This document shows, piece after piece, positions 348-45,405 of a stretch of DNA of 64,000 bases (positions are counted from its first letter, which is position 1; the number at the start of each line of letters is the position of its first letter). The position numbers and the translations under genes are program-made. Source of the DNA: Natronospirales bacterium (GTDB taxonomy: Bacteria; Pseudomonadota; Gammaproteobacteria; Natronospirales; REEB76); assembly GCA_021792635.1 (NCBI GenBank), contig JAJYUH010000003.1, forward strand, positions 101,795-165,794. The letters are read 5' to 3'. The notes under the pieces are model-generated. The model did not search any database and had not been told where the DNA came from. It was given only the letters and a program-made list of their open reading frames with translations.

Positions 348-534
348 TTTATGCGGTCGCAGACAGAATACCCCGGGTTTACCCGGGGATGAATGAGCCC
401 GGCGGCGGTTACTACCGCCGCCGGTTCCTGAATCCTGGTGTTTCATCAGGATTCAGGTCAGTTCCGTATGGAACTGTAACGGTAAGGACCCCGGCTTTAG
501 CCGGGGGAATCTATTTTCAGACCCACACTCATCA
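348..534. repeat. Multi-hairpin repeat element, copy A (~185 bp)
   Basis: Five consecutive stem-loops: 371-388 ccccggg/ttta/cccgggg; 399-424 ccggcggcggt/tact-like loop/accgccgccgg; 427-457 cctgaatcctg...caggattcagg; 459-476 cagttcc/gtat/ggaactg; 489-506 ccccggc/ttta/gccgggg. A colinear homolog in the same orientation lies at 20527-20702. Confidence 0.7.
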
Positions 535-4009: not shown

Positions 4010-5203
4010 ATGAAAACCATCCCTGAAATCGCCGCATGGCAGGATGAGTTCACCGCCATACGGCGTGACTTGCATGCGCACCCGGAGTTGCGTTACGACG
4101 AACATCGCACCGCCGGGCTCGTGGCGGAGCGCCTGGAGGGCTGGGGCCTGGAGGTGACCCGCGGCCTGGGCGGCACGGGAGTCGTCGCCACCCTGCGCGC
4201 GGGAAAATCTTTCAGGAGTGTCGGGCTGCGCGCGGACATGGATGCGTTGCCGGTGCCGGAGCACAACCAGTTCCCGCATCGTTCCCGCCATCCGGGACGG
4301 ATGCATGCCTGTGGCCACGACGGCCACACCACCATGTTGCTGGCAGCGGCGCGCTATCTGGCCGGTCGGCGGAATTTTGACGGGACGGCACACTTCATTT
4401 TTCAGCCGGCGGAGGAGGGCGGGGCCGGAGCCCGCGCGATGATCGAGGGCGGCCTGTTCAAACGGTTTCCCTGCGAGGCGGTATTCGGCATTCACAACTG
4501 GCCCGGCCTGCCGGTGGGGCATTTCGCCGTGAATCCGGGCGCCATCATGGCATCCAGCAACGAGTTCAGGATCACGGTTCGGGGAAAAGGCGGTCATGCC
4601 GCCATGCCGCACAATACACGTGATCCCGTATTTGCGGCGATCCAGATCGCCAATGGTCTGCAAGGTATCATCACCCGCAACAAGAAGCCGGTGGATACTG
4701 CGGTGCTGTCCATCACCCAGTTGCAGGCGGGTGAGGCAAGCAATGTGATACCGGATGAGGCGTCATTGGGCGGTACCGTGCGTACCTTTAACATCGAAGC
4801 GCTGGACCTCATCGACTCGCGGATGCGGCAACTGGCCGCCGCAACGGCGGCCGCCCATGACTGCACCGCGGAGACGGGATTTGAACGCAACTATCCGCCA
4901 ACGATCAACAGTCCCGCGGAGACGGAATTTGCCGTGTCAGTGATGCGCGAGGTGTGCGGCGCGGACAGCGTCATCACCAACGTCGAGCCTACCATGGGTG
5001 CGGAGGATTTCGCCTTCATGCTGCTGGAAAAACCCGGTTGCTACGCGTTTATCGGCAATGGAGACGGGGCGCACCGCACGTCCGGCCACGGTGAGGGTCC
5101 GTGCATGCTGCATAACGCCAGTTATGACTTCAACGATGAACTTATTCCCATGGGCGCAACCTATTGGGTGCGGCTGGTGGAACGCTACCTGCCGCGGGTG
5201 TAA
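4010..5203 (+). CDS. M20 family amidohydrolase (hippurate hydrolase / N-acyl-amino acid amidohydrolase-like)
   Basis: Contains LHAHPELRYDEHRTA, MHACGHDGHT, FIFQPAEEGGAGA, GKGGHAAMPH and GAEDFAF motifs. Start trimmed from TTG 3992 to ATG 4010 (MKTIPEI). Confidence 0.9.
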   Translation: MKTIPEIAAWQDEFTAIRRDLHAHPELRYDEHRTAGLVAERLEGWGLEVTRGLGGTGVVATLRAGKSFRSVGLRADMDALPVPEHNQFPHRSRHPGRMHACGHDGHTTMLLAAARYLAGRRNFDGTAHFIFQPAEEGGAGARAMIEGGLFKRFPCEAVFGIHNWPGLPVGHFAVNPGAIMASSNEFRITVRGKGGHAAMPHNTRDPVFAAIQIANGLQGIITRNKKPVDTAVLSITQLQAGEASNVIPDEASLGGTVRTFNIEALDLIDSRMRQLAAATAAAHDCTAETGFERNYPPTINSPAETEFAVSVMREVCGADSVITNVEPTMGAEDFAFMLLEKPGCYAFIGNGDGAHRTSGHGEGPCMLHNASYDFNDELIPMGATYWVRLVERYLPRV

Positions 5204-5396
5204 GCCGGGCGCGGCAATTGCCGGTTATTTCCAGCGTGGAATGACGATTTTATTTTGGTGTCCAGATTGTACAAGCGCCGCGCATGCTTCAGTGAAACAT
5301 GCCGTCAGCACATGATGTGCGTGTCGGGTAAGCGGGTACCGAGGTTCACAGCAGTCCATCGTCCTGGTTTGTATCAATGCGGTCGGCAGTGATGCT

Positions 5397-6686
5397 TCAT
5401 GGTCTCACCATCAGCAGTTTTTCATTGGCGCGTGACAGTCGCTCCATCAGCGCATTCGCAAACATGCGATAGAAGCGCAATTGGCAATCGCGGGAGGCGC
5501 GCTCCATGAGCGTGGGGCTGACACAAAGCAGGTTTACATCGCCTTGTGCACGTACGCTAGCCGTGCGTTTCATCCTGCTGAGATAGCTCATTTCACCGAA
5601 GCAATCCCCGGCGCCGAGCATGCCAAGAAGGGTATTGCCCTTGTGTACCGCGACGACTCCAGAGGCGATGATGAAGAAGCGGGTATCCGGTTCCCCCTCG
5701 GCCACCACCGTCTGGCTATCCGCGTACTTTTCCCAGTTGCTGGCTCGGATAATCTCCCAGATGTCCGCGTGAGTGAAATCCTTGAAACAGTCCAGCCGGC
5801 TCACCAGGTTGTAATGCTCCTGCTCGTTGATCTCAGTGGCACGGGCTTTCAGACTGCCAGAAACATTGATGAGGTCGCCGGCAATATCCATGCAGGATTC
5901 GTAGCGGCGCTTGAGCGGCTTTCTGAGACAACGCATCACAATGTGATTGAGAACATCGGGAATGCCGCTGCGCCGCTCGATCAGCGGTTGGGGATCGGCA
6001 TGCAGTATCTGATGCGTCAGGCCGGGCAGGGTATCCCCTGAAAATGCCGGAGTCCCGGCAACCAGCTCATAAATCAGGGCGCCCATGGAAAAGATGTCGC
6101 TCTGGTTGGTGACTGCCTCACCGCGCACCTGTTCCGGTGACATGTAACGCGGCGTGCCCACCACCCCGACGGTGGGGTTGGTCTGGCCGACGGCGGTTTT
6201 TGCGTTGCCGAAGTCCACGATCATGATGTGACCCTCCGGGTTGATCATGAGATTTGCGGGTTTGATATCGCGGTGAATGACGCCGTTGCGGTGGGCGTAG
6301 TCCAGGGCTTTGGCCATGGTGAAAAAAATTTCTATCACCTTTGGCAATGGCAGCAGGGTGTCCGGGCGGCAATGGCCGGTGAGGGGCTGGTAATGCTCAA
6401 GCAGGGCCATTACCACATAGCACAGGCCGCCCTCTTCCCCGGCGTCATGGATGGGAAGGATGTTGGGGTGCAGCAGTTTGCCTGCGATGTGCGCTTCGTT
6501 GAAGAACAGCTTGTACTGCAGCCGGGCCTGTTCAGGGCTGACATCGGTTTCGGCGTAATACACCTTGATGGCCACATCGCGGTGGGCGAACGGATCATGG
6601 GCCAGATAAACGGTTCCCGACGAGCCGTGTCCGAGTTCCCGATCCAGAATGTACTTGCCGAGTTTTTCTGCTGTGCTTGCGGCCAT
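5397..6686 (-). CDS. Hanks-type Ser/Thr protein kinase fused to a C-terminal cyclic-nucleotide-binding domain
   Basis: Kinase motifs GHGSSGTVY, AIKV, HRDIKPANLMI, DFG and GTPRYMSPE. The C-terminal ~120 aa read FFIIASGVVAVHKGNTLLGMLGAGDCFGEMSYL...RTASVRA, a cNMP-binding fold pattern. Confidence 0.9.
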   Translation of the reverse strand: MAASTAEKLGKYILDRELGHGSSGTVYLAHDPFAHRDVAIKVYYAETDVSPEQARLQYKLFFNEAHIAGKLLHPNILPIHDAGEEGGLCYVVMALLEHYQPLTGHCRPDTLLPLPKVIEIFFTMAKALDYAHRNGVIHRDIKPANLMINPEGHIMIVDFGNAKTAVGQTNPTVGVVGTPRYMSPEQVRGEAVTNQSDIFSMGALIYELVAGTPAFSGDTLPGLTHQILHADPQPLIERRSGIPDVLNHIVMRCLRKPLKRRYESCMDIAGDLINVSGSLKARATEINEQEHYNLVSRLDCFKDFTHADIWEIIRASNWEKYADSQTVVAEGEPDTRFFIIASGVVAVHKGNTLLGMLGAGDCFGEMSYLSRMKRTASVRAQGDVNLLCVSPTLMERASRDCQLRFYRMFANALMERLSRANEKLLMVRP

Positions 6687-6703
6687 GGGTGCCAGCCCTG
6701 GTG

Positions 6704-6901
6704 CTATAGCGTGGGGGATGCGTAGCGCGCCTGGCGCGCGGCACGTCGTTCAGCCGCCTGCCGCAGTACTTCACGTTTATCCCACTCAGGCATTTCTGAC
6801 CAGCGGCGGATCTCATCAAGCGTGCGTCCGCAGCCGATGCATACATTGTCGTCGTCAAGACAGCAGATGCGTACACAGGGAGAAGCGAGTGGATCGTTCA
6901 T
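6704..6901 (-). CDS. DUF1289 domain-containing protein
   Basis: SPCVRICCLDDDNVCIGCGRTLDEIRRWSEM matches the DUF1289 Cys pattern. Start trimmed to MNDPLASPC (ATG 6899-6901). Confidence 0.7.
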   Translation of the reverse strand: MNDPLASPCVRICCLDDDNVCIGCGRTLDEIRRWSEMPEWDKREVLRQAAERRAARQARYASPTL

Positions 6902-7078
6902 ACCGGCGTCCCGCGGGAGACCACGATAAAAACCGCTGTACTGGACATAATTTTGTTGCACGCCGCTGCGGAATATTCAGGTATCGCCGCGCACACTTCG
7001 CTCTCCCGGTATATTGCGCCGTGTCCCATCCGCAATGTTCTTGAAGGACTTCCACTCCACGACTGAGAAATTGTACGC

Positions 7079-12546: not shown

Positions 12547-12991
12547 ACGCAAACCGTCTGGTGAGTGCCGGCCGGATCAAACAGGGGTGGGGCGGGGTAT
12601 CAGTGTTCCCAGCAGGTGCTGGTGTTGAGGGCGCCGGCGGAATTGGTGGCGGTTCGATTGCCGGTGTTGTCGAGGCTGAAAGTGCGGCAGTCGGTATCAT
12701 TGAGCTGGGTCCCCACCGCCGTGACGGTCAGGGTGTAGATGTCGGTGGTGACAGCCGGGGGCTCGGTCAGGGTGTAGTACCCGAACTGGGTGCTGGCGGG
12801 CAGGGAGGCGGCGGAGGGCGAGCACTGGGCGCTGTTATAGCGGAAGTACTGGGTGTAGCAGCGTTCCAGGATCTGGGAATCCTGACTGAGGAGGGTTTCC
12901 GCGTCGGAGCGGTGGGATTTCAGCACCGAACGTTCATAGGAGGGGTAGGCGATGGCGGCGATGATGCCGATGATGGCCACCACGATCATGA
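12547..12991. repeat. 445-bp perfect direct repeat, copy 1 (pilE-1 body plus 53 nt of 3' flank)
   Basis: Base-for-base identical, by my reading, to 20042-20486 (offset 7,495 bp). Confidence 0.85.
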
Positions 12992-13046
12992 GCTCGATCA
13001 AAGAGAACCCCGAAACAGGCCGTCCGTTGGCCCCCGAACCCGTCAT
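12600..13046 (-). CDS. pilE: Type IV pilin, PilE-like, cassette 1
   Basis: Class III signal MTGSGANGRPVSG|FSLIELMIVVAIIGIIAAIAYPSY and a C-terminal Cys pair (DTDC...STCW). ATGA overlap with the upstream small ORF. Confidence 0.85.
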   Translation of the reverse strand: MTGSGANGRPVSGFSLIELMIVVAIIGIIAAIAYPSYERSVLKSHRSDAETLLSQDSQILERCYTQYFRYNSAQCSPSAASLPASTQFGYYTLTEPPAVTTDIYTLTVTAVGTQLNDTDCRTFSLDNTGNRTATNSAGALNTSTCWEH

Positions 13047-19853: not shown

Positions 19854-20094
19854 TGCACTTCGCTCAAAAATAATTTGCATACGAAGAATATATGCGGTGG
19901 GCAATAAAAATGAGGGGTAATGGCGATAAGTGCGCAGAAATTCCCGATGAATGGTGGTCAGGAAGGCAAACCATATTTATTATTTTACATATTATTTATG
20001 ACAATCAGCCTTGCTGACAGGAGCTGCACGCAGCCGGCGGCACGCAAACCGTCTGGTGAGTGCCGGCCGGATCAAACAGGGGTGGGGCGGGGTA
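19854..20094 (-). promoter_or_regulatory. AT-rich intergenic region upstream of cassette 1 (likely promoter region)
   Basis: This is the only clearly AT-rich stretch in the block (ccatatttattattttacatattatttatgacaat at ~19970-20005). It lies between the pilE-2 stop and the fimU-1 start. No convincing -35/-10 or sigma-54 box could be fixed by eye. Confidence 0.3.
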
Positions 20095-20486
20095 TCAGTG
20101 TTCCCAGCAGGTGCTGGTGTTGAGGGCGCCGGCGGAATTGGTGGCGGTTCGATTGCCGGTGTTGTCGAGGCTGAAAGTGCGGCAGTCGGTATCATTGAGC
20201 TGGGTCCCCACCGCCGTGACGGTCAGGGTGTAGATGTCGGTGGTGACAGCCGGGGGCTCGGTCAGGGTGTAGTACCCGAACTGGGTGCTGGCGGGCAGGG
20301 AGGCGGCGGAGGGCGAGCACTGGGCGCTGTTATAGCGGAAGTACTGGGTGTAGCAGCGTTCCAGGATCTGGGAATCCTGACTGAGGAGGGTTTCCGCGTC
20401 GGAGCGGTGGGATTTCAGCACCGAACGTTCATAGGAGGGGTAGGCGATGGCGGCGATGATGCCGATGATGGCCACCACGATCATGA
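20042..20486. repeat. 445-bp perfect direct repeat, copy 2 (pilE-2 body plus 3' flank)
   Basis: Identical to 12547-12991. Confidence 0.85.
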
Positions 20487-20625
20487 ACTCGATCAGCGAG
20501 AAACCACATGCGTCCGGCCAGACAATTTTATGCGGTAGCAGACAGAACACCACGGGGTTGTCCGTGGATAAATGAGCCTGGCGGTAGTATTTACCATCAC
20601 CGGATCCTGAATCCTGGCGTTTCAC
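20095..20625 (-). CDS. pilE: PilE-like pilin, cassette 2, with a non-canonical 5' end (possibly a silent copy)
   Basis: The mature part FSLIEFMIVV...STCWEH is identical to pilE-1 except L6F. Upstream of Gly(-1) there is no short basic leader. The only in-frame start is GTG 20623-20625, 42 codons upstream and inside the hairpin repeat element. Confidence 0.55.
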   Translation of the reverse strand: MKRQDSGSGDGKYYRQAHLSTDNPVVFCLLPHKIVWPDACGFSLIEFMIVVAIIGIIAAIAYPSYERSVLKSHRSDAETLLSQDSQILERCYTQYFRYNSAQCSPSAASLPASTQFGYYTLTEPPAVTTDIYTLTVTAVGTQLNDTDCRTFSLDNTGNRTATNSAGALNTSTCWEH

Positions 20626-20702
20626 CGGGATTCAATTCGGTTCCAGTTGGAGCGGTAGCGGAAGGACCCCGGCTTTAGCCGGGGAATCTCTCCACTCATG
20701 AT
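20527..20702. repeat. Multi-hairpin repeat element, copy B (~175 bp)
   Basis: Colinear with 348-534 (ttatgcggt.gcagacagaa ... aatgagcc ... tcctgaatcctgg ... ggaccccggctttagccgggg ... cactcat). It fills exactly the gap between the small ORF-2 stop (20714) and the mature-pilin codons of pilE-2. Confidence 0.7.
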
Positions 20703-20713
20703 TGCGCTACATC

Positions 20714-21046
20714 TCAGTTTGGTTTGGGGGGAAGCACCACGATATTGAGGATGCGCGAAGCGGGAGCGGTCACCGGACCGTTTGCTATAAACCTGATTTT
20801 CATTCCTGGCTGCAGGGCGCCTATGTCTTTCACGCCCCCGGCGCCGATATAGGAGGCCTTGGGTGCAATCTTATACACATGACCGGCGACGGTGACGGTA
20901 CGGGTAGCGTAATTGACGAATTGGATGGTGCCGTTGCCCATGTTCTCAGAAGGAACAGGATAGCTCGCCAGTGCTGTTTGGCATACGCACAAGCCCATGC
21001 ACAGGGCGAGCCTCGGCCATAAGCCGGATTTCGGTAGCTTCGACAT
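20714..21046 (-). CDS. Small secreted protein at the pilY2 position, paralog 2
   Basis: 110 aa; signal peptide ...LALCMGLCVCQTALAS; same conserved core as 13043-13384. Confidence 0.7.
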   Translation of the reverse strand: MSKLPKSGLWPRLALCMGLCVCQTALASYPVPSENMGNGTIQFVNYATRTVTVAGHVYKIAPKASYIGAGGVKDIGALQPGMKIRFIANGPVTAPASRILNIVVLPPKPN

Positions 21047-45314: not shown

Positions 45315-45405
45315 TGGCGGAGGGGGTGGGATTCGAACCCACGTGGGGCGTAAGCCCCCAACCGATTTCGAGTCGGTGCCGTTGTGACCGCTTCGGTACC
45401 CCTCC
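45315..45405 (-). tRNA. tRNA-Ser (anticodon CGA)
   Basis: 91 nt: GGAGGGG-TA-CCGA...ACCGA-CTCGAAA-TCGGT-long variable arm TGGGGGCTTACGCCCCAC-GTGGG-TTCGAAT-CCCAC-CCCCTCC-G-CCA. The cloverleaf was folded by hand; CCA is encoded. Confidence 0.9.

Follow-up and report, generated by a model that had tools for sequence, protein, structure and literature searches.

An IS200-group MITE within the leader of pilE-2, one of three tandem minor-pilin paralogs that exchange sequence by gene conversion

We analyzed a 64,000-nucleotide (nt) stretch of DNA from a Natronospirales bacterium (Gammaproteobacteria; GenBank assembly GCA_021792635.1, contig JAJYUH010000003.1, positions 101,795 to 165,794 of the forward strand), referred to here as the window. 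The minus strand of the window carries three minor-pilin operons arranged head-to-tail (12600-35289, ~23 kb), and the pilE gene of the second operon, pilE-2, is separated from its own start codon by a hairpin-rich repeat. An earlier reading by a model that saw the sequence alone (the sequence-only reading) had proposed that pilE-2 lost its start to this repeat and looks like a silent copy serving as a recombination donor. By our comparisons, the repeat is a miniature inverted-repeat transposable element (MITE) derived from an IS200-group insertion sequence. The explanation that we consider probable is that pilE-2, interrupted by the MITE, has become a dispensable copy with little or no expression, whose remaining sequence is preserved through gene conversion and which takes part in the recombination pool by an accident of homology. 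This is gene damage of an ordinary kind, seen in unusually clear detail.

The element lies within codon 4 of the pilE-2 leader

Contigs and proteins from the relatives and metagenomes used in comparisons are designated by L-numbers and P-numbers, respectively. The limits of the element were set by pairwise alignment of its joined flanks with uninterrupted homologous junctions; MAFFT alignment across the 158-nt indel misplaced the flanks. Delimited in this way, the element occupies 20532-20689 (158 nt) on the plus strand and is thus antisense to pilE-2. Its removal in silico joins ...GCGCAATC ATG AGT GGA G to AT AAA ATT GTC TGG CCG GAC GCA TGT GGT/TTC (the slash separates Gly(-1) from Phe(+1)), and the joined sequence aligns without any gap to ...CAATC ATG AAC GGA AAT AAA ATC GTC TGG GCG GAC GCG CGC GGT/TTC of contigs L041 and L044. 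The gap-free fit places the element within codon 4 of a reconstructed leader of 13 codons, MSGDKIVWPDA(R/C)G/F, which it interrupts immediately 3' of the pentanucleotide TTTAT on the plus strand. This target (20527-20531, plus strand) adjoins the left end (LE) of the element, reads ATAAA in the pilE sense, where it falls in the Asp-Lys codons of the leader, and is also present in uninterrupted homologues, as GGAAATAAAATC. A target duplication is absent, the right flank CTCC not being a duplicate. A first excision model, 20532-20691, gave a GTG-led leader and was dropped, since the intact leaders of relatives are ATG-led and have 13 codons.

The first 3 1/3 codons alone have been displaced, whereas the N-terminal region and Gly(-1) are still present. 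The displaced 5' end, ATG AGT GGA G (20690-20699, minus strand), lies 14 nt past the stop of the upstream gene pilY2-2, and after removal of the element its ATG (20699-20697) aligns with ATG AAC GGA A of the uninterrupted pilE in L041, L044 and L040. The remaining leader, (D)KIVWPDACG (20505-20531, minus strand), ends at Gly(-1) and is homologous to the intact leader MNGNKIVWADARG, which a protein search with the reconstructed PilE-2 found in P0039, P0138 and P0147; position -2 is Arg in most relatives. With a net gain of 158 nt the frame is shifted, and the old ATG is out of frame with the leader. It now opens a remnant open reading frame (ORF) encoding a 25-residue peptide, MSGEIPRLKPGSFRYRSNWNRIESR (20622-20699, minus strand), whose stop codon TGA (20624-20622) overlaps an in-frame GTG (20625-20623) as GTGA.

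These junctions alter several details of the sequence-only reading. It had placed the element at 20527-20702, a span that takes in the TTTAT target (20527-20531) and the original ATG AGT GGA G (20690-20699), and had brought it to within 12 nt of the stop of the small upstream ORF; by the corrected limits this distance is 24 nt. Its statement that the start was lost to the repeat holds in that pilE-2 is cut off from its own start, but in the window strain the ATG is displaced 158 nt upstream and out of frame, not destroyed. The check that it had set, whether relatives without the element have a normal leader, came out in its favor: their uninterrupted pilY2-pilE junctions have an ATG and a 13-codon leader. 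The reconstruction also yields the empty-site allele to be expected, ...ATGAGTGGAGATAAAATTGTC..., with the junction ATG AGT GGA GAT AAA. Pattern scans of a metagenome collection with DATAAAATTGTCTGGCCGGACGC and with the more general ATAAAATTGTCTGGCCGGACGC returned 0 matches, which is uninformative because the organism is not in that collection.

The element is a tnpA-less derivative of an IS200-group insertion sequence

The sequence-only reading was right that the repeat is structured. It folds better than every shuffled sequence, both as RNA in the pilE sense (z -3.2) and as top-strand DNA (z -3.98), and a second copy of 162 nt lies at 353-514 (plus strand) in a ~630-nt intergenic region, next to a TTTAT of its own (348-352). 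The two copies are 81% identical over 165 nt (E 3.6e-36).

Longer relatives of the repeat reveal its origin. A 21-mer from the conserved element end had 29 matches in many phyla in a scan of one genome per species, although the pattern itself contained TTTAT and so lends no independent support to the target. In L022, L024 and L037 a 142-aa ORF stands between this left end and the same right-end (RE) hairpin and tip. The product of this ORF begins MEV..YHVVWVCKYRR..IL and matches PF01797 (E 1.6e-31) and NF033573 (120.9 bits; cut-off 55), which identifies it as an IS200-type Y1 (HUH) transposase, TnpA. On L032 this left end is followed by a tnpA ORF truncated to 99 aa, and the right end was not found on that contig.

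Both copies in the window keep LE, ~28 nt of the KYRRRILNPG codons, ~34 nt of the last tnpA codons (QDSGQLRMEL and stop) and RE. For the pilE-2 copy, comparison with tnpA of L024 and L032, together with a weak tblastn match at 20592-20642, locates the tnpA remnants at 20592-20658 (plus strand), where a 5' piece resembling the KYRRRILNPG codons and a 3' piece resembling QDSGQLRMEL and stop form the central long hairpin. LE has a subterminal hairpin, CCACGGGGTTGTCCGTGG (20550-20567, plus strand), in which the copy at 353-514 shows a compensatory A-T to C-G change; read in the pilE sense it is terminator-like, with TGTTCTGTCT after it. RE (20667-20689, plus strand) comprises the hairpin CCCCGGCTTTAGCCGGGG (20667-20684) and the tip AATCT. 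The hairpins of the repeat are thus explained by the LE and RE palindromes and by pairing between the tnpA remnants. With homologous ends, subterminal hairpins, a TTTAT target and no transposase of its own, the repeat is best classified as a tnpA-less MITE of an IS200-group insertion sequence of the IS200/IS605 family. Terminal inverted repeats were not found in the element, tnpA was not found in the window by tblastn, and no named ISfinder entry matched the element.

Insertion in the IS200/IS605 family places LE 3' of a defined tetra- or pentanucleotide and duplicates no target sequence (PMC5027513). Non-autonomous derivatives of this family (MITE-like, or like palindrome-associated transposable elements, PATEs) resemble the window element in having a hairpin at each end, no terminal inverted repeats, no duplication, LE at a fixed pentanucleotide, ends homologous to those of full-length copies with a Y1 HUH transposase, and interior remnants of tnpA only (PMC5027513). 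The pilE-2 copy differs from them in two ways: it sits within a coding leader and not between genes, and it is without the last 2 nt of the right tip. The consensus tip, from at least 20 copies, is AATCTAT, which is complete in the copy at 353-514; the two bases have probably been lost from the pilE-2 copy, and for this reason that copy should be immobile.

The top strand of both copies lies on the plus strand of the window, which is the G-rich one (GC skew +0.07). The IS200/IS605 family has a known bias for the lagging-strand template, and the placement of the two copies is compatible with such a bias without proving it.

Two further features of related elements were observed. Mini-elements of ~45 nt, consisting of the 5' part of LE, one hairpin and the right tip (e.g. 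GCGGTCGCAGACAGAACACCACGGCTTTAGCCGGGGGTATCTAT), occur in L011, L012, L015, L020, L021, L025, L030, L031 and L036; they are found in several phyla, often immediately downstream of a terminator-like hairpin with its T-run. From Zixibacteria through Gammaproteobacteria, the 20 nt at the left end are the same or almost the same, a likeness for which an exact-match search selects. In the full-length elements (L022, L024 and L037, and L032 with its truncated ORF), the 5' untranslated region GGCGGTAT is complementary to the KYRR codons ATACCGCC, and the ILNPG codons CCTGAATCCTG are complementary to the QDSG codons CAGGATTCAGG, which lie at the opposite end of tnpA. These distant complementary pairs are the central hairpins of the MITE (window 20580-20640), and they may regulate tnpA or mark deletion end-points.

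Gene conversion among the pilE paralogs

The mature part of pilE-2 had been described as identical to that of pilE-1, which is correct except at residue 6 (L6F). A stretch of 445 nt (20042-20486, minus strand) is identical to 12547-12991 of the pilE-1 region and reaches 53 nt past the stop codon, while outside it cassettes 1 and 2 show identities of 0.48-0.81 in 250-column windows. This perfect run is a recent gene-conversion tract. The sequence-only reading had taken a mature part "kept perfectly" as the sign of a donor; a tract that continues 53 nt beyond the stop explains the same observation. Since conversion accounts for the intact mature region, that region provides no evidence of selection on pilE-2. 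Both R(-2)C and L6F fall in a short stretch outside the tract.

Two blocks are identical in all three paralogs, one of ~150 nt in the N-terminal coding sequence and one of ~75 nt close to the 3' end, and they bracket a variable block. As had been noted, the similarity of pilE-2 to pilE-3 passes through the Gly(-1) codon and stops near 20510; the BLAST alignment ends at 20510. Among strains, almost every combination of leader and variable domain is found. Type A variable domains follow the pilE-1 leader in P0129, the interrupted pilE-2 leader in P0121 and P0122, and another leader type in P0133. Type B domains follow the pilE-1 leader in P0003 and P0143, the interrupted pilE-2 leader in P0135 and the intact KIVW leader in P0138, and the last of these leaders also occurs with a third type, in P0039. 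The pilE-2 gene itself has type A in the window and in L001 and type B, the pilE-3 type, in L005. Such mosaics indicate frequent segmental recombination among the pilE paralogs, in which conversion from pilE-1 or pilE-3 would repeatedly overwrite pilE-2 by way of the two blocks common to all three.

In the Neisseria pilS system, transfer from the silent copy into the expressed gene is non-reciprocal and depends on RecA. The mosaic alleles demonstrate exchange among the paralogs here, and its direction cannot be read from them. Because the content of pilE-2 changes between strains, however, pilE-2 is at least an acceptor. Its private marker, F6, was never found behind another leader in the strain comparison.

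Across P0001-P0003 and P0121-P0147 there are at least four leader types and three variable-domain types in many combinations, with a constant N-terminal block that is identical throughout.

The insertion is present in all contigs of the species examined

Ten contigs with an identical PilY2-2 (L001-L010), from several metagenome-assembled genomes and metagenome assemblies, carry the element at the same site (10/10), so the insertion is fixed in the species as sampled. Further changes have accumulated around it. The old ATG reads ACG in five of nine aligned contigs (L001, L002, L004, L008 and L010). R(-2)C and L6F occur in the window, L003 and L005, the other aligned contigs having Arg and Leu at these positions. 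In L006, an IS21-family element (4445-7035), in which istA and istB were called, interrupts the mature-coding part of pilE-2 behind ...ERSVLK, and CTGAAA(T) is repeated on its two sides. The loss of the ATG, the two substitutions and the IS21 insertion together suggest that pilE-2 is dispensable.

The alleles around the MITE fall into two linked sets, ATG AGT ... TGT ... TTC (window, L003, L005) and ACG GGT ... CGT ... CTC, and L006 is a recombinant of the two. In L001 (6528-9236) the interrupted pilE-2 lies directly before gshA and cassette 1 is absent. Either recombination between pilE-2 and pilE-1 has truly deleted cassette 1, or the assembly has passed through the identical repeat, within which L002 and L003 end.

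Is pilE-2 still expressed?

The course of events that we favor begins with insertion of the MITE in codon 4 of the leader, 3' of TTTAT on the opposite strand, in the manner of single-strand "peel and paste" elements. The insert uncouples the ancestral ATG from the rest of pilE-2, shifts the frame and brings stable hairpins, including a terminator-like one, in front of what is left of the leader. Pilin could then be made from pilE-2 only by starting at a GTG within the element, either at 20553 or 20550, in or beside a hairpin arm, or at 20625. We infer from this that pilE-2 is most likely expressed poorly or not at all, while continuing to recombine with its paralogs. What the comparisons above establish is the insertion, the family to which the element belongs, its fixation in the species and the conversion; the loss of expression is what we deduce.

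The sequence-only reading had allowed no start codon in the pilin frame before GTG 20625. This is not so: GTG 20553-20551 and GTG 20550-20548 (20548-20553, minus strand) are both in frame by direct reading of the sequence. The leader that would start at GTG 20625 has 41 residues and is not clearly non-basic, where 42 non-basic residues had been claimed.

These codons lead to the most serious alternative, which we regard as unlikely yet worth weighing: that pilE-2 still functions, its start having moved to GTG 20553 (or 20550), to give a leader of 16-17 residues, MVFCLLPHKIVWPDA(R/C)G, which is cleaved at Gly(-1) to release a normal minor pilin. Several observations speak for it and so weigh against a silent pilE-2. 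Both GTG codons share the pilin frame, and no stop interrupts that frame within the element as far back as 20625. A 152-aa product is called in several assemblies; on the contigs of relatives the gene callers chose GTG 20553 (P0121, P0122), with the leader MVFCLLPHKIVWPDACG. Gly(-1), Phe(+1) and Glu(+5) are preserved, and prepilin peptidases accept varied leaders provided that Gly(-1) is kept. Apart from the IS21 case, the mature part has no frameshift or stop in any strain, which frequent conversion could also explain. A separate limit bears on the insertion reading: the uninterrupted junctions come from related single-operon species and are not an empty-site allele of the same species.

Ribosome binding does not decide the matter. 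The intact starts of pilE-1 and pilE-3 likewise have no strong Shine-Dalgarno sequence, and the GGA at -12 of the new start is similar to the weak context of the pilE-3 start. We dropped Shine-Dalgarno strength as a test of the alternative starts, because a weak sequence before GTG 20553 is non-discriminating when the intact paralogs are equally weak. Given these weak paralog sequences and the conserved Gly(-1), Phe(+1) and Glu(+5), some expression from GTG 20553, 20550 or 20625 may occur.

Other features argue against a working gene. GTG 20553 lies in the 3' arm of the 6-bp, G+C-rich hairpin (20567 to 20550 in the pilE sense), just before a T-rich tail. The N-terminus of the new leader would be hydrophobic, unlike that of the intact leaders. 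Conversion accounts for the intact mature region, L006 shows that pilE-2 can be lost, and the radical changes R(-2)C and L6F lie in the short stretch that the conversion tract does not cover. An interrupted, silent or weakly expressed pilE-2 remains the reading that we prefer.

Is pilE-2 a donor for pilin variation?

In this uncultured lineage the array as a whole could be a variation system for the pilus-tip or priming complex, in which the MITE-silenced pilE-2, as a stored cassette, trades its variable block with the expressed pilE-1 and pilE-3 by way of the two conserved blocks on either side. We find this idea doubtful; if it were true, it would be a pilS-like arrangement born of transposon silencing and acting on a minor rather than a major pilin.

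The more specific proposal, close to that of the sequence-only reading, likens pilE-2 to Neisseria pilS, as a dedicated silent donor maintained without expression for the copying of its variable region into an expressed pilE, which would vary the pilus tip complex. This we hold to be improbable. The start of pilE-2 is displaced, a ~150-nt variable region between blocks identical in the three paralogs would suit segmental conversion, and leaders and variable domains are shuffled between strains. The arrangement also resembles Neisseria pilE/pilS in that there are several close pilin copies, one of them without a usable start, and segmental conversion between conserved blocks (PMC3547852). In Neisseria, a G-quadruplex (G4)-forming sequence and an associated small RNA lie beside the recipient pilE (PMC3547852). 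By regex scan, none of the pilE genes in the window has a G4 motif next to it.

There are also differences from Neisseria. The Neisseria pilS copies are without a promoter, a start and the conserved N-terminal coding region, whereas pilE-2 retains that region together with Gly(-1). In addition, pilE-2 encodes a minor pilin within a fimT-pilVWXY1Y2E-type operon, its probable silencing is due to a transposon remnant, and there is a single such copy. The part of the donor claim that stands is that pilE-2 recombines with its paralogs; it is at least an acceptor, its content varying by strain while its flanks stay constant, and in the window strain it stores nothing that pilE-1 lacks. F6 never appears behind another leader, and the interrupting element is an ordinary MITE that also occurs elsewhere in the window. 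Neither loss of the N-terminal region, nor stored variant sequence, nor a G4 motif was found for pilE-2, and a dedicated Neisseria-style donor cassette is not supported by these comparisons.

A reversible switch or a regulatory RNA

Reversible switching of pilE-2 is very unlikely. Here TnpA supplied in trans from a full-length copy would excise the MITE precisely and restore an ATG-led pilE-2 in a subpopulation. Elements of the IS200/IS605 family do excise precisely as single-strand circles (PMC5027513), the old ATG persists in the window strain, and exact removal of 158 nt restores the frame. But the RE tip is without the last 2 nt of the consensus cleavage site, and a cut made at the usual distance would yield ATG AGT GGA TAA, which ends in a stop codon. 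In most strains ACG has replaced the old ATG, the window has no tnpA, and the excised allele was seen in none of the ten contigs.

Least likely of all is a role of the element as a cis-regulatory RNA (a riboswitch or leader) that would control pilE-2 as well as the gene following the second copy. In its favor, each copy precedes a minus-strand gene and has the same orientation, the fold is strong and there are compensatory changes between the copies. Against it, no Rfam family matched, the hairpins belong to an insertion sequence, as its LE and RE palindromes and its tnpA remnants, and the pilE genes of relatives do without the element, which interrupts a coding leader. The Rfam search gave only a tRNA over the whole window at gathering thresholds, and over 20400-20800 at E up to 10 a single 18-nt chance hairpin match. 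The reading as a structured RNA or riboswitch was dropped after the tnpA-bearing copies had been seen.

Implications of an interrupted pilE-2

A MITE-interrupted pilE-2 is an annotation trap. Callers report a 152-aa "pilin" that starts in a transposon remnant, or a truncated form of 125-129 aa, where the gene is an interrupted paralog. The locus also offers a clean case of an IS200-type MITE landing in a coding leader, with the target, both junctions and uninterrupted homologous sites recovered. That conversion can keep a disabled gene looking perfect is a caution against equating intactness with selection. Finally, the shuffling of leaders and variable domains suggests that minor-pilin diversity arises by recombination within the array.

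The tandem minor-pilin operons

Cassette 3 consists of a GspH/FimT-like gene (35289 to 34765), pilV, pilW, pilX, the gene for a 1471-aa PilY1, a small ORF and pilE-3 (27306-27725). Cassette 2 consists of pilV (27082 to 26462), pilW, pilX, pilY1 (24659 to 21090), pilY2-2 (20714-21046) and pilE-2, and is without a FimT/GspH-like first gene. Cassette 1 has a FimT-like gene (19853 to 19317), pilV, pilW, pilX, pilY1 (16939 to 13403), pilY2-1 and pilE-1 (12600-13046), after which comes gshA. All of these lie on the minus strand. The PilY1 of cassette 3 has a long Pro/Gly/Ser-rich insert; those of cassettes 1 and 2 are 1178 aa long.

The starts of pilE-1, whose ATG overlaps the pilY2-1 stop, and of pilE-3, which has a type-B variable region (P0137), are intact. 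Their leaders, MTGSGANGRPVSG and MQLNKTRG, each followed by Phe, are as the sequence-only reading gave them (13046 to 12600 and 27725 to 27306). The mature PilE-2 coding region with its stop codon spans 20095-20504 (minus strand). Profile searches found an N-methylation motif and a ComP_DUS/PilE-type domain in all three PilE proteins, the globular domain matching PF16732 with E about 2e-18. In pilE-2 the class III signal is kept, ...ACG/FSLIEF with Gly(-1), Phe(+1), Glu(+5) and a hydrophobic N-terminal helix, and matches PF07963 and TIGR02532. An in-frame start of its own with a short leader, as a PilE-type minor pilin would have, is lacking in pilE-2. Homologues are annotated "type IV pilus assembly protein PilE" (Joint Genome Institute naming). 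Based on these domains, the homologue names and the gene position after pilY1-pilY2, the three pilE genes encode minor pilins of a fimU-pilVWXY1Y2E-type operon and not Neisseria-type major pilins.

The small ORF pilY2-2 comes from the ORF list and ends with TGA at 20716-20714. Its product matches Pfam Fimbrial_PilY2 weakly (E 6.8e-4, under the curated cut-off), and a protein identical to PilY2-2 is present on 23 contigs of relatives. The related contigs L040-L046 have a single operon, in which pilE starts 15 nt past the pilY2 stop and gshA comes next; in L041 and L044 this operon occupies the same place, beside gshA.

Multiple minor-pilin/PilY1 sets per genome are known, for example the three sets of Myxococcus xanthus (PMC7541494, PMC8833165). 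The window likewise has three sets of minor pilins and PilY1 in one genome. They differ from those of M. xanthus in lying head-to-tail in one 23-kb array, with pilE homogenized by conversion and one pilE interrupted.

Two observations concern other parts of the window. The minus-strand gene downstream of the second MITE copy is cut by the window start; its product begins MELKIQYRVEQLDKGMYVAELDRP, which we take to resemble the N-terminus of HD-GYP/DUF3391 proteins. A tRNA gene at 45318-45405 (minus strand) is the sole Rfam match at gathering threshold in the window.

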